A DNA stretch of 64,000 bases from Candidatus Melainabacteria bacterium 17Bon1m (GCA_032128875.1 JAVLKG010000007.1:1-64000), one strand, 5' to 3'; positions 10,952 through 21,535 are shown, counted from the stretch's first letter. Notes: a model not told the origin generated them from the letters alone. Numbers and translations: made by a program.

Positions 10952-12068
10952 ATGATGCTGTCTGAGCTGAAAAGAGAAGTAGAACTGGCCGAGGAGCGCC
11001 TGGCGAAAGTCAGCGAATATCTTTGACTTAGAAAAGGTAGCAGCCGATCTAAAGAAGCTGCAGGAAGAAACTCTCGAGCCCGATTTCTGGAATGACAATC
11101 GTGCCGCCAAGGCTGTGACGCAAAAAATGGCACGCCTGGAAAATTCGATAAAGCAACACGAAAGCTGGACATCGCAAATAAGCGACTTGAAGGTTTTGAT
11201 ACAGCTCGGACTGGAAGAAGGCGAAGAGTCGCTGGCCAGCGAGGTCGCGCAAGGTCTCGATAGGTTGAACAAAGAGCTCGAGACCTACGAATTCACACGT
11301 TTGCTTTCGGGAGAATATGACGACTCGGCAGCAATCGTCACTATCAATGCGGGCGCAGGCGGCACGGATGCTCAGGACTGGGCGGAAATGCTTTTGAGAA
11401 TGTATCTTCGCTGGGCCCAACAAAGAGGATTTTCGACCGAGATCATTGACCAATCGGCCGGTGAAGAAGCAGGCATCAAGAGCGCCACAGTAAAAGTAGA
11501 AGGCCCTTACGCCTACGGATATCTGTCGTGCGAAAAAGGGGTTCATCGACTGGTTAGAAAGTCTCCGTTCAAACAAGGCTCTGATTCCAGGCAGACAAGC
11601 TTCGCTGCATTGGAGGTCAGTCCGATAATGAGCGACATCGATGCGCTAGTTGAGATCAAGGACGATGACATTGAGGTGGAAACAATGCGCTCAGGTGGCG
11701 CAGGTGGACAAAACGTCAACAAGGTCGAGAGTGCTGTTCGTATCGTGCACAAACCAACAGGTATTGCAGTTAAATGCCAGCAAGAACGCAGCCAGTTGCA
11801 AAACAAAGCGTTAGCGATGGAGTTGTTGCGCTCAAAACTTCTGGCTATCCGTCAGGCCGAGCGAGAAGAAGAACTGTCGAAATTGAAGGGCGATAATGTG
11901 CAAGCGACATTTGGAAACGCCATCAGATCGTACGTTCTAGACGACCGTATGGTGAAAGATGTGCGCACCAAATGTGAAACCACTAATGTGGAAAGCGTGC
12001 TGAACGGCAACCTCGATGAGTTCATCAACTCGTATCTGCGGATGAGAGCCGCTTTAAAATCCACTTGA
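10952..12068 (+). CDS. prfB: Peptide chain release factor 2 with programmed +1 frameshift
   Basis: ATG 10952 reads 24 codons to CTT-TGA-C (11021-11027); the +1 frame (GAC 11025) is continuous with ORF 11115-12068 carrying the SPF and GGQ motifs. Confidence 0.95.
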
Positions 12069-12776
12069 TAACCGAACTGCGCGACGCGATTTTTGTCTTT
12101 AAAAGTGTCGAGGAAGTGCCCGAATACAGGGAAGCCCTCTTTACAACCACAGTCCAGAAATCAGCACATTAAAACTGCCATCGAGAGCCGCGCTAATTGT
12201 TCGCGCTTGACATCAGCGCCTTGCAACCCTCACAGCCACCGGTCTCGAAAGCCGCGCGAGCCATTGCGGCAATCATTAAGAAAACCAAAACGAGCCACCA
12301 GGGCGGTTCTTAACGGCTACTCATCAAAAAACGCACCTTACAATGTACCCCAAAAATACCATGCCGAGGGGACTCTTTTCGGTCTAATGACAACTCGGGT
12401 TTTCCCCAGCAGTTCCTTTATCAACCGTTATCAAGTGGATAGGCGATTCGGATGAAAAGTGGACTGGTTAGCCTTTCCTTTAGCTTTTCAGTAGGCGCCC
12501 GTCTTCTTATAGATCTTTATTTGGTGGTTCCATCCTTATTTGATACGGTCGAATTATCGTTTTGCATCCATTCGCATATCCCTGGAGTCCCACCCACCAC
12601 CCGTCCATCCGTTTTCCATACAGGTTTCATTGGCTTAGTCCTCCCATCAGCGTGCCGCTGTGTTGTAGACCGTCTATCCAAATCAGCAGTTTTCACACGC
12701 TGTTGAAAGGATCGGCTTGATACCACCAGTGACACCTAGCAAGAGAGATGAGTCCGTGCTTACCAGGGTGTTCAAA

Positions 12777-13128
12777 GGCGAGGGAATGCAAGGCATCAGG
12801 TTGATGGTGTTGTTATAGATTCGCGCCGTTAGCAGGAGTTACACACACATCCTCTAATAGCGTCGGATTTCGAGCACGCCTCGCCCGGTCAAAAATTGCC
12901 AGTCACAGCAACGCCCCTCAGTCGTTGCGTATATGAGTGCGAGTCAACCAGAAAACTGCTCTGCAGTTCGCGAATTGCTTCGGCAGTTTGTTGGTTGACT
13001 CGCAATCTATTGATTGGCGATTCCGACCTGACGGCCAGTTTCGCTTGAGGCGAGGCTGACATCAACCATCAATCAGAAGCCATAGGGCCTGCGGCAAAAA
13101 CCGCATCCTCCTATTGGGCTGAATTCTG
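12777..13128 (+). ncRNA. Candidate large structured RNA / 5' leader of the prkA operon
   Basis: Four consecutive stem domains, including perfect 13-bp 12938-12950/12992-13004 and 12-bp 12894-12905/13011-13022; G.U pairs favour the + strand; no ORF in the track. Confidence 0.55.
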
Positions 13129-13203
13129 TCGACCTCAATTCGGCGTACGCCTCAGAACAGTTTGAGAACGCGCGCCAACTATCCGTGTGAAGGAGGTAAG
13201 GGC

Positions 13204-15492
13204 ATGTCCCAACATGAGCTAACAAATCTGCTGAAGCTCACTCCTCTGACTGACCCTCCGCTCAATTACGCCGAGTTCCTCCTGGAGCTCAAGGATCACC
13301 TGGAACGTGCGGACACTGCGCCCGCACTCATCCTGCGTTCGATCAAGGCGATGGGCGAGGAGAAGATCGAGGATGAGCAGGACCCCGAGCGGCGTCAGTT
13401 TCTGATGACGCTGAAGGACGTGGGTATCCCGTCCCTGCTCGCGTTCAAGCATGTGTGCGGTAGCCAGCGCTTCGCACTCAGCATGCTGAACTTTCTCGCC
13501 GCGGCCGCAGGCAACGGCGCGCAGCTCAAGAAGATGATGATCGTCGAAGGTGGCCCCGGTGCGGGCAAAGACTTCTTCGGCGACGGCATCGAGCGCGCGC
13601 TGGAACTTGGCGCCAAGGTGTATGCGGTAAAGGGATGTCCCGACCACGAGAACCCCATCAACTTGCTCAAGTTGCTTGACGACAAGCAGCTGAAGCAGTT
13701 GGCTGAGGTGACCGGGCTGGGCAACACTCTTTTCGACATCCTGGCGGTCGCCGGCGATCCGTGCCAGCACTGCTACACGAACGTGAAGGGTACCCTCGCG
13801 GAACCCAAAAAGGAGCCGTCCCTCGAGTGCATCGAGGTGGAGGCCATTCACGTTTCGAAGCGCTCGGCCGGTGTTTCCGAATGGAAGCCCGGTGAGAACT
13901 GCTCGCTTATCGCGGCTCTGCGTCGCGGTAACCGCGGTTTCATTTCGCTTCCGGATGCGTTCATCAAGCGTGAACTGAAGCCGGGCGAAGCCGACGAGCG
14001 CCTCATCCTGCTGGACGCTACGCAGTATCGCCGCCTGCCGGCAGCCAGCGATGGTTGCTCGGACGCCGCCGCGGCATCGCCGCTGGATGCGTTCATCATG
14101 GCGACGACCAACGCGAAGGCGTTGTCGGAATTCCTCAATACGCTGCCGGACAAGGACGCGTTCACCGGTCGCTCGACCCTTCTCAAGTTCCCGTACAACC
14201 TCGTCCGCGTGGAAGAGGTGCGTGCGTACTTGCAGGAGATGTCGCGCTACAAGGTGACTGCCAAGTTCGACCCGCTCGCCTTGAAGATGATTGCGACCCT
14301 CGCAGTCATCAGCCGCTACGCGGTGCCCAAGGAGGGTGAGCCGTTCGTCCATCCGGTCGACCGCCTGCGATTGCTCCAGGGCGAAACCATTCAGGTGAAG
14401 CCTCGCGCCGGATCCGAGTGGTCCAGCGTCTGGGCGACGGAGAGCGGCAGCCGCAGCTCGAGCAGCTACGATGATCGCTTCGGCGGTTACGGCAGCAGCA
14501 AGCCCGCGGCGACGGCCAGCACCAACAACTACGGTCCGGAGGCCATGGCCATCCCGACCGACATGGCGATCACGTCTGGCCTGATGTGGCGCCTCATCGG
14601 CAAGGATGAGGGTCTGCAGGGTCTGGACATGCGCTTCATGCTCGGCTTGCTCAGCCAGGTCAACGAGATCGGGCTCAAGTCGAAGCACAAGTGCGTCAGT
14701 GCGCTGGATGCCATCGCGCTCCTGCGTGCTGCGATCCAGAACAGTCTCTCGACGTCCAACCTGACGGACGCTCAGAAGGCCGTCCTCAAGCGCTGCCAGA
14801 AGTGGCTGGGCGGTGAAGTCACCACCACCAACGACTGGAACAAGAGCGCGACCGACCGTCCCGAAGTCATCGAGGCGGAGTATCGCCGTCTGCTCAAGCA
14901 GCAGATTCTTCAGGTCTTCTGTGCGGACTACGCCGCGCAGGCCCAGGGTCTCTACGACGCTTACCGCGCTCACGCATCCGCGTTTGCGCAGGGCGACAAG
15001 GAAGCCAGGGTGAAGGGCGTCGGTAAGGTGCCGGTGAACACCAGCATCCTCGACGAACTGGACCGCTACCGTCTGAACAAGCGGCCGGGCGACTGGCTGA
15101 CCGAAGACGAGAAGAAGTTCCGTGGCGCTCTCGAGACGCTTCTCGACGAGGCTCGCGAAAAGTTCATTCAGGACAACCTCCCGAAGAACGCCGGCGAGCT
15201 GAAGGAAGAGGAGCTGCGCGAGCAGCGTATCGAAATCATCAAGCGTTTCGTCGAGAGCTGGGAGACCATCCCGGAACTCGCCAACGCAATCCGCGCGAAG
15301 CTCGATGAAAAGGTCGGTAAGGCAGTCGAGAAGCTGCTGACGACTGAGGTCACTTCCGACCTCACCGACATCGAACAGGAACAGCTCGCGAAGGCGAAGC
15401 AGACCATGACCGACATGGGGTACTGCGAAGCTCTTCAGAAGCCCGTTCTCGAATACGCGAAGCGTGTCAAAGTCTGGGCCTTCAAGGCCTAA
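13204..15492 (+). CDS. prkA: PrkA/YeaG-family AAA+ protein, copy 1 (degenerate Walker motifs)
   Basis: AGGAGG RBS; GGPGAGKD, CPDHENP, RGNRG, FPYNL, EGLQGLDMRF match the PrkA architecture. Confidence 0.75.
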   Translation: MSQHELTNLLKLTPLTDPPLNYAEFLLELKDHLERADTAPALILRSIKAMGEEKIEDEQDPERRQFLMTLKDVGIPSLLAFKHVCGSQRFALSMLNFLAAAAGNGAQLKKMMIVEGGPGAGKDFFGDGIERALELGAKVYAVKGCPDHENPINLLKLLDDKQLKQLAEVTGLGNTLFDILAVAGDPCQHCYTNVKGTLAEPKKEPSLECIEVEAIHVSKRSAGVSEWKPGENCSLIAALRRGNRGFISLPDAFIKRELKPGEADERLILLDATQYRRLPAASDGCSDAAAASPLDAFIMATTNAKALSEFLNTLPDKDAFTGRSTLLKFPYNLVRVEEVRAYLQEMSRYKVTAKFDPLALKMIATLAVISRYAVPKEGEPFVHPVDRLRLLQGETIQVKPRAGSEWSSVWATESGSRSSSSYDDRFGGYGSSKPAATASTNNYGPEAMAIPTDMAITSGLMWRLIGKDEGLQGLDMRFMLGLLSQVNEIGLKSKHKCVSALDAIALLRAAIQNSLSTSNLTDAQKAVLKRCQKWLGGEVTTTNDWNKSATDRPEVIEAEYRRLLKQQILQVFCADYAAQAQGLYDAYRAHASAFAQGDKEARVKGVGKVPVNTSILDELDRYRLNKRPGDWLTEDEKKFRGALETLLDEAREKFIQDNLPKNAGELKEEELREQRIEIIKRFVESWETIPELANAIRAKLDEKVGKAVEKLLTTEVTSDLTDIEQEQLAKAKQTMTDMGYCEALQKPVLEYAKRVKVWAFKA

Positions 15493-15516
15493 TTCCTCAG
15501 ATAAGGAGTCTGCACA

Positions 15517-17901
15517 ATGAATACGAACCTGCAGTTCACAAGCGAGACGCATCCCCAGCTCTGGTTGCCGGAGGATCCGTTCCCGTACTCGTTCAACGGC
15601 CTGAAGAACACCCTGAAGGACTTCCTCAAGGTCGTGCGCGCGAACCCGGCTTACGTGGAGACCACGCACGCCGCGTTCTATCGCCTCAACATCCGCGAAG
15701 GTCTCGACACCAGCCGCAGCGAAGCTCTGCTCCGCATGACCGGCAAGGAGATCCCCGGCTACAAGACCGCCTCCAAGTTCTACGGCGTGGAAGAGGCTGT
15801 TCACGAGATCGTGAACGGCTACGGCTTCCAGGCGGCTCAGGGTGGTCGTACCCGTCGTAAGGCGCTCACCGTCACTGGTGCGCCCGGCGCCGGCAAGTCC
15901 GACCTGACCAACCACTTCCAGTACAAGATCATGCGCAACCGTGAGCCGATCCCCTTCCTGGGCGGCTCGGACATGTGGGCGAACCCGCTGGGTGCGCTCT
16001 ACTTGATCAAGCTGGTCGCGCAGAAGAAGACGCAGCGCCGCAAGGACGCCACGCTGAAGGAGATCGAGCGCATCATCGGCTCGCTCGACTTCACCGGCAC
16101 CGCGGAGCTGGACTTCGACACGCCGGAAGTGCGCGCCATCCTGAAGAAGCACGACGTGTCGAGCGACAAGCCGACCGACGCCGAGCTGGCTCAGATCCTC
16201 TACGCCAACGACAAGGACTTCGTGGCCATCGTCTGCTTCGGCCTGGGCCTGCCCCAGCCGACGTTCGAAGCGCTCGTCATGCCGGATCCGAAGGCGCAGG
16301 ACGTGGTTCTCGGCGAGTTCGCCGGCGCCGCGTTCGTCAACCGTGACGTGCTCGCCGCGTCCGAAGTGAAGACCGCGTCCGGCAAGCCGGCCACCGAGGT
16401 CAAGGGCAAGAAGCGCGGCGACGCGAAGTACGCTCAGTACGACGCCGACTGCGCCATCGAGCTGGCGGACTTCCCGCTGGACAACATGTTCATGTCCGAA
16501 GGTCAGGGCATGGTGGACGTTGCCGAAGTGCAGCCCATCAACTTCGACCTGAAGGTGTGGCGTGGTGACACCGACATCGCGTCGCTCGGCCTGTACGACG
16601 ACCGCGACCCGCGTGGTGTCTCGCTCTCGGGCGTGTTCAACAAGGGCAAGTTCATCGTCCTGACGGAAGGCTTCCGTAACCCGGACGAGGCGTTCCGTAT
16701 CCTGCTCGAGGGTCTGGAAGGTCAGCGTCTGTCGCTGCCCGAGCCGCTCTCCAACTTCCACCAGCAGGGTGTGGGTTGGGAAGGCATGATCCTCATCCAC
16801 TCGAACGACGAGCAGTGGAACAAGTTCTGGTCGAACCCGGCGCACCGTGCGCACAACGACCGTCTGTTCTGGGTGTCGTTCAAGTACCCGCTCGAGCCGG
16901 AGCAGGCTGCCGCCGTCACCGAGAAGCTGTACAGCTCCTCGCAGTTCGGCAAGCCGACGGCGCGCGGTGGCGTTCACCGTGAGCCCCTGATGAAGTCGTA
17001 CATCGGCATGTTCCGCGTGGCGACCCACATCGACTGGCCGAGCAAGGGCAACCTGCCCTTCAACGCGGTGCTCAAGGCGTACTCCGGCGAGGTCGTTCGC
17101 GACTCCGGCATGGGTACCGAACTCGAGCTGCGTGCCCTTCGCGAGAAGGCGCCGTGGACCGAGGGCCTCGAGGGCATGTCGCCTCGCGAGATGGACACCA
17201 TCCTCGGTGAGCTCGCCTCCCAGGCGCGCAACGAGTTCGAGTCGGGCCATCGCTCGTCTCCGGGCTTCACCGTCGCCGAGCTGCGCGATCACATGATCGA
17301 CAAGTTCCGCAAGGATCCGCGTCTCGAGCAGAAGAAGAAGGAGCAGTGGATCAACTGGCTCCAGGGCCCCATGGAGAAGGCGCGTCGCGTCGAGCTGAGC
17401 AAGGTCTACAAGGCCGCGTTCATCCCGAACTTCGCCGACTCCTGCCAGCAGTTCTTCCGCAAGTACCAGGACTACCTGAAGGCGATCAACCTCGGGTCGA
17501 CCCGCAAGGGCTACTCTGGTTCGAGCTACATGAACCAGGCGGACATGGAGCGGTTCCTGCAGGAGATCGAACGGGCTGACAGCCTGCAGATCAACTCCGC
17601 GCAGGCCGACAAGTTCCGTACCAACGTCCTGGTGGCCATCCGCGCGTACAACGAGGAGCACGGCACGTCCGAGCCCCCGTACACCGTGCACGACGGCCTG
17701 AAGCGCTGCATCGAGGCCTACGTGCTGCGTCAGGCGAAGGACTTCACCGGCGTGATCGGTATGTCCTCGCTGTCCGAGGACGAGAAGAAGCGTCTCGATG
17801 GCGCCAAGGCTCGTCTGATCAAGGAGCACGGGTACGACGAGTACACCGCCGAGAAGCTCCTGGTCGAAGTGGCGCTCACCCGCGACTTCCTCGTCGCCTA
17901 A
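15517..17901 (+). CDS. prkA: PrkA/YeaG-family AAA+ protein, copy 2
   Basis: FYGVEE, GAPGAGKS, DPRGVSLSG, HSNDEQW, EGLEGMSPRE and C-terminal HGYDEYTA are typical of PrkA. Confidence 0.82.
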   Translation: MNTNLQFTSETHPQLWLPEDPFPYSFNGLKNTLKDFLKVVRANPAYVETTHAAFYRLNIREGLDTSRSEALLRMTGKEIPGYKTASKFYGVEEAVHEIVNGYGFQAAQGGRTRRKALTVTGAPGAGKSDLTNHFQYKIMRNREPIPFLGGSDMWANPLGALYLIKLVAQKKTQRRKDATLKEIERIIGSLDFTGTAELDFDTPEVRAILKKHDVSSDKPTDAELAQILYANDKDFVAIVCFGLGLPQPTFEALVMPDPKAQDVVLGEFAGAAFVNRDVLAASEVKTASGKPATEVKGKKRGDAKYAQYDADCAIELADFPLDNMFMSEGQGMVDVAEVQPINFDLKVWRGDTDIASLGLYDDRDPRGVSLSGVFNKGKFIVLTEGFRNPDEAFRILLEGLEGQRLSLPEPLSNFHQQGVGWEGMILIHSNDEQWNKFWSNPAHRAHNDRLFWVSFKYPLEPEQAAAVTEKLYSSSQFGKPTARGGVHREPLMKSYIGMFRVATHIDWPSKGNLPFNAVLKAYSGEVVRDSGMGTELELRALREKAPWTEGLEGMSPREMDTILGELASQARNEFESGHRSSPGFTVAELRDHMIDKFRKDPRLEQKKKEQWINWLQGPMEKARRVELSKVYKAAFIPNFADSCQQFFRKYQDYLKAINLGSTRKGYSGSSYMNQADMERFLQEIERADSLQINSAQADKFRTNVLVAIRAYNEEHGTSEPPYTVHDGLKRCIEAYVLRQAKDFTGVIGMSSLSEDEKKRLDGAKARLIKEHGYDEYTAEKLLVEVALTRDFLVA

Positions 17902-17986
17902 ACGTCGTGACCTAGTCTGACTGGTCATGATGTGAAAGCTGGGGCGTGACGCGAAAGCGTTGCTCCGGCTTTTGGCAATTAGCTTG

Positions 17987-18050
17987 AGAAACGGCAGGCA
18001 CCGGATTTGGTGGCAACACCAGACACCGGACCTGCCGTTTTTCTTCTTTT
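17987..18050 (+). terminator. Terminator-like hairpin between prkA2 and yeaH
   Basis: AAACGGCAGG/CCTGCCGTTT stem with inner GCAA-capped hairpin and a U-rich tail. Confidence 0.55.
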
Positions 18051-18114
18051 CCATCTAATCATGACAAGCTCAGGCAAGTCCTGTGCCAAGTCCAAATGAG
18101 ACTGGAGGTCAAAT

Positions 18115-19548
18115 ATGAACCGCGATGACATCAACAAGAGTCAGGACGGCGCAGAGGAGACTACCCCCGGCACGGGTGTGGTTAATCACGACGCGGCAGC
18201 CGAGAAGGCTCTCAGCGAGTGGGAGACCCAAATGCTGCGAGTACTCAACGGCGACGTTGACGTACCCGAGCGTACCCGTCCGTCGGTGGTCCTCCCGAGG
18301 CCGCCCTACTTCGACCGCACAATCACCGACCGCTGGCGCTTCATGGAACGCGCCAAGCCGAAGATCACCAAAGACGTTCTGAAGCAGATCATCCGCGGCA
18401 AGAGCGGTGTGTTCAACGAGACGTTCGGTGGCAAGTCCACCTCGACGCTCGCGCACATCTTCCTCACGCATGCGATGTTCCGTGACTGCGAAGTCGCGCG
18501 CGGACTGAACGACATCGTCTATGTTCCGGCCAAGGTGCTCGATTCGGGCTTCCTGGCTGGCGGCGATATCGAGGTGCCGATCGGCGTCGACGAACCGAGC
18601 TGGTGGCCCGGTCGCGACAAGGCTGGTGGCGGTGGCGGTGGCAACGAAGCCGGCGAAGATGACGCCGACATCGTCTACATGCCGATCACCTATGAGGAGT
18701 TCCTGGAACTTCTTTCCCTCCTGTTCGATCTGCCGTTCCTGAAGCAGACCGACATGGACAAGATGCTGGTGCAGACCATCAAGATGCGTGGTCTGAAGCG
18801 CACCGGTCCGTCTGTCCGCATGGACAAGAAGGCGACCGCGATCGCGCGTCTCGAGCGCTTCCGCGCCACCCGCAACTCGCGTCCCGACGAGTTCCCCGAC
18901 CTCGACGCCGAGGCCAACCCGACCGTGGAGCAGTTCCCCTTCCACAAGGTGGACCTGCGCTACAAGCGCATCGAAGAGCGTTGGGATCCGGACTCCAAGG
19001 CGGTCGTTTTCTTCGAGCTGGACACCTCCGGCTCGATGAGTGGTGAACCGCTGGCGATGGCCAAGTTCTACTTTCTGCTCAACCTCATCTGGCTGCGCAC
19101 CAAGTACAACGAAGTCAAAGTCGTGTACATCGCTCACAACCACCGCGCCGAGCGCATCCGCAACGAAGCGGACTTCTTCAAGACCGACGTCAACGGCGGC
19201 ACCGGCTTCGCCTGTGCTCACGAGTTGGTCTGGGAGATCATGAACATCGAATTCCCGGGCGACGGCTGGAACAAGTACTGCTTGCACGCGACCGACGGTT
19301 TCGGCGAGCACGAAAGCCAGATCACCCCGTGGATCGAGAAGCTGGTTCGAGGCGGCTTCAACTATTTCGGCTATCTCGAAGTTGACCTCGGTTGGGGCGG
19401 CTTCGGTGGCTGGGAGACGTCAGGCATGAAGGCCGTGAAGCAGACCGCTCCGGACGTCCGTGAGCACTGCGGCTGGTCCCGTGTCGCATCCCTCGATGAA
19501 ATCCCCGCGGCCATGAAGCAAATCATGACCAAGGATAAGACCGCCTAA
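18115..19548 (+). CDS. yeaH: YeaH/YhbH (DUF444) vWA-domain protein
   Basis: Gly-rich GGGGGGNEAGE segment, FDLPFLK, DLRYKR, MIDAS DTSGSM, GGT and TDG; follows prkA. Confidence 0.85.
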   Translation: MNRDDINKSQDGAEETTPGTGVVNHDAAAEKALSEWETQMLRVLNGDVDVPERTRPSVVLPRPPYFDRTITDRWRFMERAKPKITKDVLKQIIRGKSGVFNETFGGKSTSTLAHIFLTHAMFRDCEVARGLNDIVYVPAKVLDSGFLAGGDIEVPIGVDEPSWWPGRDKAGGGGGGNEAGEDDADIVYMPITYEEFLELLSLLFDLPFLKQTDMDKMLVQTIKMRGLKRTGPSVRMDKKATAIARLERFRATRNSRPDEFPDLDAEANPTVEQFPFHKVDLRYKRIEERWDPDSKAVVFFELDTSGSMSGEPLAMAKFYFLLNLIWLRTKYNEVKVVYIAHNHRAERIRNEADFFKTDVNGGTGFACAHELVWEIMNIEFPGDGWNKYCLHATDGFGEHESQITPWIEKLVRGGFNYFGYLEVDLGWGGFGGWETSGMKAVKQTAPDVREHCGWSRVASLDEIPAAMKQIMTKDKTA

Positions 19549-19564
19549 CTAAGGAGGATTTGAT

Positions 19565-21535
19565 ATGAAAAACGAATCAAACTCCACCCACACCTGGGCG
19601 GAGATTCTGTCTAATGATCCGAGGCAGGCGCAGCTCGTCCGCAACCTGAACATCATGGTTCCGCGGGTGGAAGCAGCCGGCAAGCGCTTCGGCGCCAAGC
19701 CGTGCCGCGCCCTCTTCACCATCAAGTCCGATCAGCAGGTGCTGGATGACCTCGTCTATCCGCTGGGCGTGCCGGTTTCTCGGCCCGCCTGGTGGTACGG
19801 CAAGGCCGTTCAGCAGTCGCGCAGCAAGGGTCAGGGCGGTCACGTTTTCGAATTCGCGACCGTCTCCAACCCCGCGCACGTGGTGCTCGGCGAAACCAAC
19901 GACCTGATGATGCACATCCTCGTGATCATCCACGCGTGGATGGGTCACGTGCACATGTTCACGAACAACATCTGGCACGACGAGACCGAGCGCGAAACCG
20001 CGCTGCAGCGTTTCGCCCAGGCCGAGTCGTTCGTGCAGCGTCTGGTCAACGACGAGAAGACGTTCGGGTGGGAGTGGTACGAGTTCTTCTCGGATGCCGC
20101 TCACGCTCTGGAAAACCACTCCGGCGAGCTGCCCTCCAACAAGGAGCGCGAGTCGGATGTGGAAGCGCGTGCCGCTCTGCGTCAGCGTCTCGATGACCTG
20201 AAGCACCAGCACACCCTGGCGAAGACGGACCCGGATCGGGCAACCATCGAAGCGGACATCCGCGACATCGCCAAGACGCTGTCCTGCCACCCGCTCAGCC
20301 CGACAACCGACCTGCTCGGCTTCCTGGCGTCGGAAGACAATCCGCACGCCCTCCTTCCGGAAGTGAAGGAGATTCTCGATATCACGAGATACGAGAACCG
20401 CTACTCGACTCAGGTGATCGGCCGTACGAAGACCATCCACGAGGGTGTCTCGCACTGGTTCGACGCTGAGCTGCCCCTGCAGCCCGAGCTGGACCTCATC
20501 CGGCTGGGAGCCGATCGCATCTTCGACGCCGCCAAGTACGACACCATGCACGACGCGTGGCCGATCTACTGGTACTCCGACCCGTACGCTCTCGGTCAGG
20601 AGCTGATCTATTACGTGGACTCCAAGCACAGCCGCAAGACTGGCACGGAGATCATCAAGGTTCGGCGCCTCAAGCTCCTCACGGAGGAGGACGTGGCGAA
20701 GGGCGGCAAGTACATGGAAGCGGTGCCGGATCACGTCGATGCCGAAGGCAAGACCGTGGTTCGCTACGAAGAGCGCGACATCAACGAGGAAGGCCGCATC
20801 GCCGGCGACCTCGTCGAGCTCGACGAGTTCAAGGAAGTGGAAGTGGACGTCTGGGACCGCACTGAGTTCTGGAGCGTTCTGAACACGTTCGATGACAATC
20901 GGCTGTTCACCACCTACCTGACCGAAGAGTTCTTCGAGAAGCTGCACAAGAAGGCGCTCGGCTGGGTCAAGAAGTCGATCACTTCCATCAACCGTACCCT
21001 GCGCGAAGTGCGTTGGGACCCGAACCTCATCTTCGACGGCGACCGCTTCCCGCAGACGCTGCAGGAGATGTTCCAGGTCATCCAGATCTGGATGAACCAG
21101 CTCCAGATGTCGAGCTGGATCGGTCAGTGGTTCGGTTACGGCGCGGCGCCCTTCCCGGTGTCGCAAGTCGTCCTGTGGCAGATGCTGCAGATCGTCCAAA
21201 CCGTCGCCTCGTACGACGCCGACAAGAATGAGTTCAAGCGTCACATGCTGCTCCGCACGGGGCTTCTGGCGCTGCCGAACATCAAGCTGGTCGACACGGG
21301 TCGTGAGAACAAGACTCCGTACTGGACGCTCCGTCACGAATTCGACTCTGACTTCGGTCCGCTGAAGCAGAGCCACGCGCGGCAGACGCTGCGCTACTTC
21401 TGGCGGTTCTCTGGTCCGGTGCGCATGCTCACGATGGAAATCCTGACGGATGCTTACGGGCGTCCGGTGGGTCCGCCGCGTCCGTACGAGTACTACACGG
21501 AGAACGGCAAGACGGTGAAGGAGCGTTGGCTGTAA
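19565..21535 (+). CDS. spoVR: SpoVR/YcgB-family protein
   Basis: LVIIHAWMGHVHMFTNN, TKTIHEG, DPYALG and LPNIKLVD...LRH correspond to SpoVR motifs; context after prkA-yeaH. Confidence 0.82.
   Translation: MKNESNSTHTWAEILSNDPRQAQLVRNLNIMVPRVEAAGKRFGAKPCRALFTIKSDQQVLDDLVYPLGVPVSRPAWWYGKAVQQSRSKGQGGHVFEFATVSNPAHVVLGETNDLMMHILVIIHAWMGHVHMFTNNIWHDETERETALQRFAQAESFVQRLVNDEKTFGWEWYEFFSDAAHALENHSGELPSNKERESDVEARAALRQRLDDLKHQHTLAKTDPDRATIEADIRDIAKTLSCHPLSPTTDLLGFLASEDNPHALLPEVKEILDITRYENRYSTQVIGRTKTIHEGVSHWFDAELPLQPELDLIRLGADRIFDAAKYDTMHDAWPIYWYSDPYALGQELIYYVDSKHSRKTGTEIIKVRRLKLLTEEDVAKGGKYMEAVPDHVDAEGKTVVRYEERDINEEGRIAGDLVELDEFKEVEVDVWDRTEFWSVLNTFDDNRLFTTYLTEEFFEKLHKKALGWVKKSITSINRTLREVRWDPNLIFDGDRFPQTLQEMFQVIQIWMNQLQMSSWIGQWFGYGAAPFPVSQVVLWQMLQIVQTVASYDADKNEFKRHMLLRTGLLALPNIKLVDTGRENKTPYWTLRHEFDSDFGPLKQSHARQTLRYFWRFSGPVRMLTMEILTDAYGRPVGPPRPYEYYTENGKTVKERWL

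Follow-up and report, generated by a model that had tools for sequence, protein, structure and literature searches.

An element within the gene-free region upstream of the prkA1-prkA2-yeaH-spoVR operon of Candidatus Melainabacteria bacterium 17Bon1m (GCA_032128875.1) is a real, undescribed, structured 5′ leader that is restricted to one genus and probably regulates in cis. The PrkA/YeaG-YeaH-SpoVR/YcgB module is widespread in bacteria and is tied to starvation survival and sporulation. The host lineage belongs to the non-photosynthetic Melainabacteria (Obscuribacterales), which are relatives of the cyanobacteria. An earlier note, made from this DNA, had suggested an undescribed non-coding RNA or cis-regulatory leader of a stress or dormancy operon. 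That suggestion is borne out by the lack of an Rfam match, a conserved core with covarying arms, the PrkA-PrkA-YeaH-SpoVR genes downstream, and contigs from RNA libraries that run into prkA. No clear match to a known family, no transcription confined to the DNA downstream of the element and no loss of structural conservation among relatives was found, these being the findings that the note had named beforehand as contrary to its reading. The motifs it quoted are all where it placed them in the sequence.

The window, a stretch of 64,000 nucleotides, is the start of contig C7 of a 7.55-Mb genome in 35 contigs. The studied stretch lies inside a 1.1-kb gene-free gap, with prfB on the left and the first of two prkA genes on the right (Table 1). 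The prfB ORF at 11115-12068 matches Pfam PCRF and RF-1, and a programmed +1 frameshift site, CTTTGAC, is present at 11021 (TAT CTT TGA C), where frame 0 ends in SEYL and a stop and the +1 frame goes on; this is a known feature, and the gene is intact. A perfect 14-nt inverted repeat, ATCCACTTGATAAC/GTTATCAAGTGGAT (12059-12072 and 12427-12440), has one arm over the prfB stop codon and the other 354 nt downstream, and is only partly kept in relatives. To the right, the ORF of prkA1 carries PrkA domains and its product is a divergent PrkA (AAA_PrkA, Pfam E 8e-16). The tandem paralogues (13204-17901) differ in this respect, the first being far more divergent from the Pfam models (E 8e-16 and 5e-9) than the second (9e-30 and 1e-23).

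Table 1. Features of the prfB-prkA1 gap and its flanks, in window coordinates. Block identities are to G000, in G004, G012, G006 and L028.
Feature	Position	Strand	Basis or remark
prfB (release factor 2)	11021-12068	+	left edge of gap
Motif A	12345-12395	.	TACCCCAWAAATAG, ~25-nt spacer, (C)ATGACAAC
Ultra-conserved non-coding block	12440-12600	+	holds GGTTAGCCTTTCCTTTAGC and TATAGA; alignment
Upstream hairpin domain	12633-12753	+	RNAalifold; base helix GTGYCGCTG/CAGTGACAC, invariant G.U, variable tip
H1 5′ strand, CGAGGGAATGCA	12779-12790	+	predicted to pair with 13120-13131; consensus fold
H2 5′ strand, GGCATCAGGTTGATGGT	12792-12808	+	predicted to pair with 13065-13081; inverted repeat I5
H3 arm	12811-12876	+	helices 3-6 of pair count
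H4 5′ strand, GCCTCGCC (GCCTTGCC in relatives)	12878-12885	+	predicted partner 13049-13056; alternative GGCGAGG, 12777-12783
Domain B long arm	12886-13047	+	base stem, optional GCAACG/CGTTGC hairpin, long hairpin 12935-13007
H4 3′ strand, GGCGAGGC	13049-13056	+	consensus fold and forced-pairing energies
H2 3′ strand, ACCATCAATCAGAAGCC	13065-13081	+	within invariant word GCTGACATCAACCATCAATCA; block 85-97% identical
H5 hairpin	13085-13109	+	GCGG/CCGC core, A-rich loop
H1 3′ strand, TGAATTCTGTCG	13120-13131	+	consensus fold; block 94-100% identical
Hairpin between domain and ribosome-binding site	13142-13176	+	every minimum-free-energy (MFE) fold inspected; sequence varies, 14-25% identity in distant relatives
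Conserved word ATCCGTGTGA (ATCCATSTAA in relatives)	13181-13190	+	predicted anti-Shine-Dalgarno in some relatives
Shine-Dalgarno (SD) sequence and start codon of prkA1	13191-13206	+	AGGAGG 13191-96, a strong ribosome-binding site; ATG 13204
Operon prkA1, prkA2, DUF444/yeaH, spoVR	13204-21535	+	ORFs and Pfam
Identity block	12777-12815		90-93%
Identity block	12875-12888		79-93%
Identity block	13049-13081		85-97%
Identity block	13117-13132		94-100%
Identity, domain B			28-40%; rich in indels
Identity, H5 region			34-46%; rich in indels
Identity block	13133-13190		14-25%; rich in indels

A BLAST search of 60 relatives with the whole gap gives matches in 7 of the 12 other genomes of the genus and in none of the 24 genomes from other genera of the family. 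Of these seven, two can be aligned over the full length at 84%, three match across 12069-12885 and in the 3′ core, and the remaining two match in the 5′ part only, at a contig end. In two fragmented genomes of the genus, G001 (contig C286) and G002 (contig C297), the contig breaks within the conserved gap, at ~12440 and ~12260, respectively. One metagenome scan with an invariant 21-mer yields six loci, three of them new, and relatives and metagenome loci together thus provide nine distinct sequences, apparently all from one genus. The prkA1 protein (E ≤ 1e-100) is present in 6 of 13 genus genomes, which are the same six that carry the full element. A covariance model of the 5′ core (12762-12892) has one match in its own 7.55-Mb genome and, of 104 family genomes, matches only these six, all of one genus; it detects no closed-domain homologue beyond them among the 104. 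The element is therefore single copy, confined to the genus and strictly linked to this prkA.

The element is also non-coding, and is present only before this prkA. Its length ranges from 311 to 392 nt with differences that are not multiples of three, and a candidate coding gene was rejected: the nine sequences have their longest stop-free stretches on differing strands and in differing frames, with no shared ORF and no Pfam match. The small ORFs (three in the gap and three within the studied stretch) likewise lack a Pfam match. An origin as a genomic repeat or MITE was also dismissed, as BLAST of 12700-13200 against its own genome returns only itself and its own inverted arm. The core words occur once or twice each in the genome, and the 16-mer GGCTGAATTCTGTCGA in the 3′ strand of H1 occurs once.

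We used RNAalifold to derive a consensus fold from eight of the sequences, all of one genus. The consensus has 73 pairs, and 94.2% of 569 cells are standard pairs. Fourteen of the 73 pairs are changed on both sides, compared with 4.3 ± 1.6 in shuffles (0 of 500 reached this count) and 2-8 when partners are slid by 1-3 columns, with the proviso, which holds here, that pairs were counted on the same eight sequences and that a structure derived from the sequences being counted tends to beat its controls. The predicted fold is one closed domain of 353 nt (12779-13131), in which H1 would close the domain and H2 would stack inside it; the junction would then bear the H3 arm and H4, with H4 holding a long variable arm, and the H5 hairpin would be located between the 3′ strands of H2 and H1. 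The domain map of the earlier note needs redrawing: comparison gives a single closed domain with long-range helices.

Of the three long-range helices (H1, H2 and H4), 85-100% identical across species, H1 and H2 hardly vary. H1 has 9 pairs, of which 7 never vary (98.6% paired; 5′ block 90-100% identical), and H2 has 15 pairs (99.2% paired) with one compensatory change, C-G to A-U in G012, and one gain of a pair, A.A to U-A in G004 and L028. Both helices, so, rest on conservation plus one compensatory change; the weight of covariation lies in H3, H5 and the long arm. By rough arithmetic, a long-range pairing of 17 nt with two mismatches and G.U allowed is expected about once per 352 nt, and H2 alone is therefore not beyond chance. 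The note had proposed a long-range pair between GGTTGATG (12799-806) and CATCAACC (13060-67). The comparison supports this pair in a register that is shifted and longer (12792-12808 with 13065-13081).

Two of its local elements have counterparts in the consensus. The irregular hairpin of its domain A corresponds to the H3 arm, with 8 of 20 pairs changed on both sides, and its domain D corresponds to the H5 hairpin, with 3 of 8. Its domain C (13036-58) is not conserved in the four relatives with insertions there. Indels are limited to hairpin tips and arms in the alignment; G004 and L028 have insertions after H5. An extra hairpin is inserted in the H3 arm of L028. Short palindromic GC-rich insertions of the form TGCGC-N2-4-GCGCA are found at hairpin tips at three variable leader sites in L007 (G004) and L028, and the same form makes up the loose end of a contig from the sediment library X12 at 13105; their sequences suggest that those genomes have a small family of dispersed palindromic repeats.

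The strand GCCTYGCC has two potential partners, because GGCGAGG occurs at both 12777 and 13049 and CCTYGCC is able to pair with either copy. The earlier note had domain A closed by GGCGAGG (12777-83) and CCTCGCC (12879-85). Both the MFE and the eight-sequence consensus instead pair CCTCGCC with the downstream copy, and forcing each pairing in turn makes the downstream partner better by 2.4-10.2 kcal/mol in all nine sequences, with an energy equal to that of the free MFE in five. The closure originally proposed is the weaker alternative. The variable position of H4 appears as C-G, U-A and U-G across sequences. The upstream pairing is nevertheless a legitimate alternative in the model and would form first during transcription, and two possible partners for GCCTYGCC would permit a switch.

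The long arm held by H4 is variable. Its stem, GGTC/GACC plus AATTGCCAGTCA/TGATTGGCGATT, closes a junction with the small GCAACG/CGTTGC hairpin and the long hairpin 12935-13007, whose 25-nt arms are 88% complementary and whose tip is C(UUCG)G (12978-12983). The conserved words near 13001-13014 and 13029-13039 are single-stranded. We folded the segment between the H4 strands (129-173 nt) singly for each sequence by MFE, and an arm forms in nine of nine. In eight of these it is a long arm with a base stem of lineage-specific sequence: GGUC/GACC plus AUUGCCAGUCA/UGAUUGGCGAU in G000, a GGUGCGGUCG-type stem in G007, and a GGCCGGCGCCG/CGGCGAGCCGG-type stem in G004, G012 and L028. The arm also folds in G008 and L024, but there it is closed by a different 4-bp pair at the ends of the segment. 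The small hairpin is confined to G000 and, as GCAGC/GCUGC, to G008 and L024 among the nine. The tip loops are UUCG (G000, L023 and G004), UCCG (G007 and G008), GAAA (G006) and GCAA (G012). Exchange between families of stable tetraloops is a classic indication that RNA structure is under selection.

Synonymous sites of the adjacent gene provide a neutral reference. Four-fold sites of prkA1 are identical to G000 at 80% (G007) and 76% (G008) in near relatives, and at 61% (G004) and 62% (G012) in more distant ones. In G004 and G012, the core blocks are 85-100% identical to G000 and the arms 28-46%. Judged by these comparisons, conservation of the helix-forming core strands far exceeds the neutral level, and the arms change in sequence and length and are still predicted to pair. 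Close kinship alone would be an insufficient cause of such a pattern.

Folding energy points in the same direction as the alignment. On the + strand, the studied stretch folds at -144.4 kcal/mol, compared with -108.95 ± 5.01 over 100 dinucleotide shuffles, none of which did as well (z -7.08), and the - strand gives a z of -4.56. A separate control with 60 dinucleotide shuffles each puts the element at z -6.2 and the 420 nt that precede the SD sequence at -7.9; four 420-nt stretches of prkA coding sequence lie between -2.9 and -4.8. The background in these genomes is therefore not zero, and the fold excess of the element is real, yet smaller than the raw z implies. The consensus energy is -56.5 kcal/mol for the + strand and -40.7 for the reverse strand, which agrees with the earlier argument that a G.U bias towards the + strand indicates RNA.

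These results bear on the view that the element has no function and is recently diverged spacer with a chance palindrome or inserted hairpin, its conservation reflecting close kinship. The nine sequences do share a single genus, much of the folding energy is due to the long hairpin 12935-13007, which is the least conserved part, and the coding controls likewise fold better than shuffles. Even so, the view is unlikely because of the selection and arm-covariation results: core blocks exceed four-fold sites in the distant relatives, indels fall only in hairpin tips and arms, covariation is above both controls in the closed domain and in hairpin 12633-12753, and the hairpin is not a genomic repeat.

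Structure and conservation extend upstream of the studied stretch. The earlier note had the structured region begin at 12777, a boundary that does not hold given a further covarying hairpin at 12633-12753, in which 34 pairs are formed (87.5% of cells paired) and 11 are changed on both sides, compared with 5.3 ± 1.7 in shuffles (1 of 500 reached this count) and 3-7 in slid controls. The block at 12440-12600 is 89-98% identical within the genus and is the best-conserved part of the gap; four-fold sites stand at 61-62%. This 160-nt block exceeds the synonymous sites of the flanking genes in conservation, and its TATAG box and GGTTAGCCTTTYCTTYAG are shared with other genera. Every candidate reading frame of the block is broken by stops or indels in the alignment, and an ORF at 12452-12706 was rejected owing to a stop in G004, frame-breaking indels and the lack of a Pfam match. 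The block may belong to the RNA as its 5′ part, or be promoter or operator DNA.

Beyond the genus, eight genomes from seven other genera have a prkA1 orthologue (47-57% identical), in each case preceded by a gap of ~590-1100 nt. The closed domain is not found by profile in these eight leaders, in which nhmmer detects motif A only, and their structure is uneven (z -0.06 to -5.1). A whole-gap nhmmer profile matches five of the eight loci with E values of 1.8e-5 to 0.03, and motif A (TACCCCAWAAATAG ... TGACAAC) is the sole part of the gap that can be detected by profile ahead of prkA1 outside the genus, and may serve as a promoter or operator. Motif A lies ~480-650 nt before prkA1 in L034-L038 and is present also in L039 and L041. 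By eye, the other-genus leaders share GGTTAGCCTTTYCTTYAG and repeated GTTGTCATG-like words, and in L041 the latter occur four times with tandem spacing. Near-palindromes of the form TGTCA-Nx-TGACA are located near the start codon in several genera. Taken by their sequences, motif A, the GTTGTCATG-like words and the near-palindromes look like an array of regulator sites.

Two further candidates were not supported. A stem around GGTTAGCC is not consistent across genera, and TACCCCAWAAATA as a regulon word occurs three times in the genome, once inside a coding sequence and once between two genes on the other strand. Overall, the 5′ module (12345-12600) is probably promoter or operator DNA or a set of primary-sequence RNA signals, and the closed domain would be a genus-specific elaboration of a long leader. 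A broader alternative joins these parts, taking the prfB-prkA spacer as one multi-domain sensor RNA of ~0.5-0.85 kb (5′ module, hairpin 12633-12753 and 353-nt domain) that reads a starvation signal, either a metabolite or one of the PrkA/YeaH/SpoVR proteins, and gates translation of the dormancy module. We regard this as improbable, to the same degree as an element with no function.

Another possibility is a complex promoter region in which the conserved words serve as DNA sites for transcription factors and the RNA would fold only incidentally. Short words in the best-conserved stretch of the gap (12345-12600) recur in other genera (TACCCCAWAAATAG, the GTTGTCATG-like repeats and GGTTAGCCTTTYCTTYAG), no cross-genus stem is found around one such word, and H1 and H2 are nearly invariant. 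This account is nonetheless doubtful, slightly more so than the two just considered, and is weakened by the same selection and arm-covariation results. Across 250-340 nt, the conserved words of the closed domain complement one another, H2 stays intact through one C-G to A-U double change, and G.U pairs favour one strand. DNA sites also leave unexplained how the arms keep pairing despite replaced sequence and tetraloop switches, and contigs from RNA libraries cover the region.

The evidence from RNA consists of contigs assembled from RNA libraries, which carry no strand and no true ends and may include DNA carry-over. From a bioreactor metatranscriptome (X16), a 1133-nt contig of a relative matches 12716-12858 and 12963-13868, with 74 other letters replacing 104 at the variable arm; the span of this contig thus joins the element to the prkA coding sequence. 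A sediment metatranscriptome (X12) contributes two near-identical contigs, at 12641-12897 and 13042-13260, the second of which crosses the start codon, and a lake metatranscriptome (X15) contributes a 510-nt contig that starts at 12507. The contig starts differ (12507, 12641 and ~12693), and X12, X15 and X16 have contig-free stretches, such that no 5′ end is defined. A 17.6-kb contig from X1 has flat depth and is uninformative. Together, the contigs are consistent with co-transcription of the element and prkA, short of proof.

Signals for the start and end of transcription are scarce. No terminator-like site is found in 11900-13300, nor is a terminator or U-tract present after H1, and a consensus scan of the same interval gives no sigma-70-like promoter. 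Several candidates were rejected because their spacing is not kept across genera: a promoter assigned by hand (TTTTCA-N17-TATAGA, 12485-12513), TGACAA as a -35 box, a sigma-B-like GGGTAY on the - strand, and a sigma-54 box. A replication origin was likewise discarded, with 0 DnaA boxes (≤1 mismatch to the E. coli consensus) in 12069-13203 and the extreme of the contig's cumulative GC skew elsewhere, at ~150 kb.

Least likely of all the alternatives is a free-standing or processed non-coding RNA with its own job, such as a stable trans-acting or protein-binding fragment of the leader, for even though the domain is compact and closed by its own helix, both near-identical X12 contigs lie within the leader, and its 353 nt exceed the size of typical riboswitch aptamers, no terminator or U-tract follows H1, RNA contigs continue into prkA, linkage to prkA1 is strict with a single copy, and no promoter was found directly upstream.

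Between the closed domain and prkA1, the SD sequence AGGAGG and the ATG are invariant in nine of nine sequences. The word preceding the SD is predicted to pair with it in some relatives, with pairing probabilities of 0.94-1.0 in G004 and 0.84-0.97 in G012, the central A being unpaired in both; pairing in L028 and G006 is partial. In G004 and G012, the pairing between word and SD spans a further covarying hairpin. This hairpin is absent from the G000 group (five of nine), in which the word lies immediately next to the SD and is unable to pair with it, and the SD has diffuse partners only, including ACCUC just after H1. The expression platform is thus not uniform across the nine sequences. The word ends in TGA or TAA in all nine, and an upstream ORF ending at ATCCGTGTGA was considered. 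Such an ORF has no shared start codon, varies in length from 17 to 73 codons and is not conserved, and so was rejected.

The reading we favour, and hold to be fairly likely, makes the studied stretch the principal structured portion of a long leader at the 5′ end of the prkA1-prkA2-yeaH-spoVR mRNA, a cis-acting domain that tunes translation initiation or messenger stability, possibly by way of GCCTYGCC. We infer action in cis on operon expression, most likely at one of these two steps, from the lack of a terminator after the domain and from the word before the ribosome-binding site that is predicted to pair with this site in part of the relatives. The conserved, folded leader offers a concrete and testable handle on post-transcriptional control of the PrkA module and contributes one more candidate family of structured RNAs, with a reach limited to one uncultured genus and nine sequences.

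The earlier note recognized no known RNA class, and database searches agree. With Rfam 15 (4227 models, including riboswitches, T-box, ribozymes, OLE/ROOL/GOLLD/HEARO/raiA and 6S), the whole window has 0 matches at gathering thresholds. At E ≤ 10, the interval 11900-13400 gives only three plant or animal microRNA models on the long hairpin, at 16.6-23.1 bits against gathering thresholds of 48-100, and six relatives' loci give 0 matches at E ≤ 1. A T-box was specifically dismissed, with no RF00230 match at E ≤ 10 and no terminator/antiterminator pair in 11900-13300.

In E. coli, yeaG is induced by nitrogen starvation and other stresses and is activated by NtrC (PMC4664914; bioRxiv 10.1101/254623). 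The element shares with this system the same gene module and the same starvation setting; control of yeaG, however, is described as activation of transcription, and an RNA leader goes unmentioned in the accessible portions of these two sources (PMC4664914; bioRxiv 10.1101/254623). A literature search covering sources available in part returned neither an RNA leader for prkA or yeaG nor an RNA regulator from Melainabacteria.

The favoured leader reading invites comparison with established classes as they are generally known. Like riboswitches and T-box leaders, the element stands in cis before an operon, combines a conserved core with variable peripheral arms, contains a strand (GCCTYGCC) with alternative partners, and in some members has a ribosome-binding site that is predicted to pair with a conserved upstream word. 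Unlike them, it has no Rfam match and no terminator/antiterminator, its expression platform is non-uniform, and its closed domain is larger than typical riboswitch aptamers. In contrast to OLE, ROOL, GOLLD, HEARO and raiA RNAs, the element is fixed before one operon in one genus, lacks its own terminator and matches no Rfam family. It nevertheless resembles these large RNAs in being a multi-helix RNA of several hundred nucleotides whose core is conserved and which came to light through comparison in uncultured bacteria.
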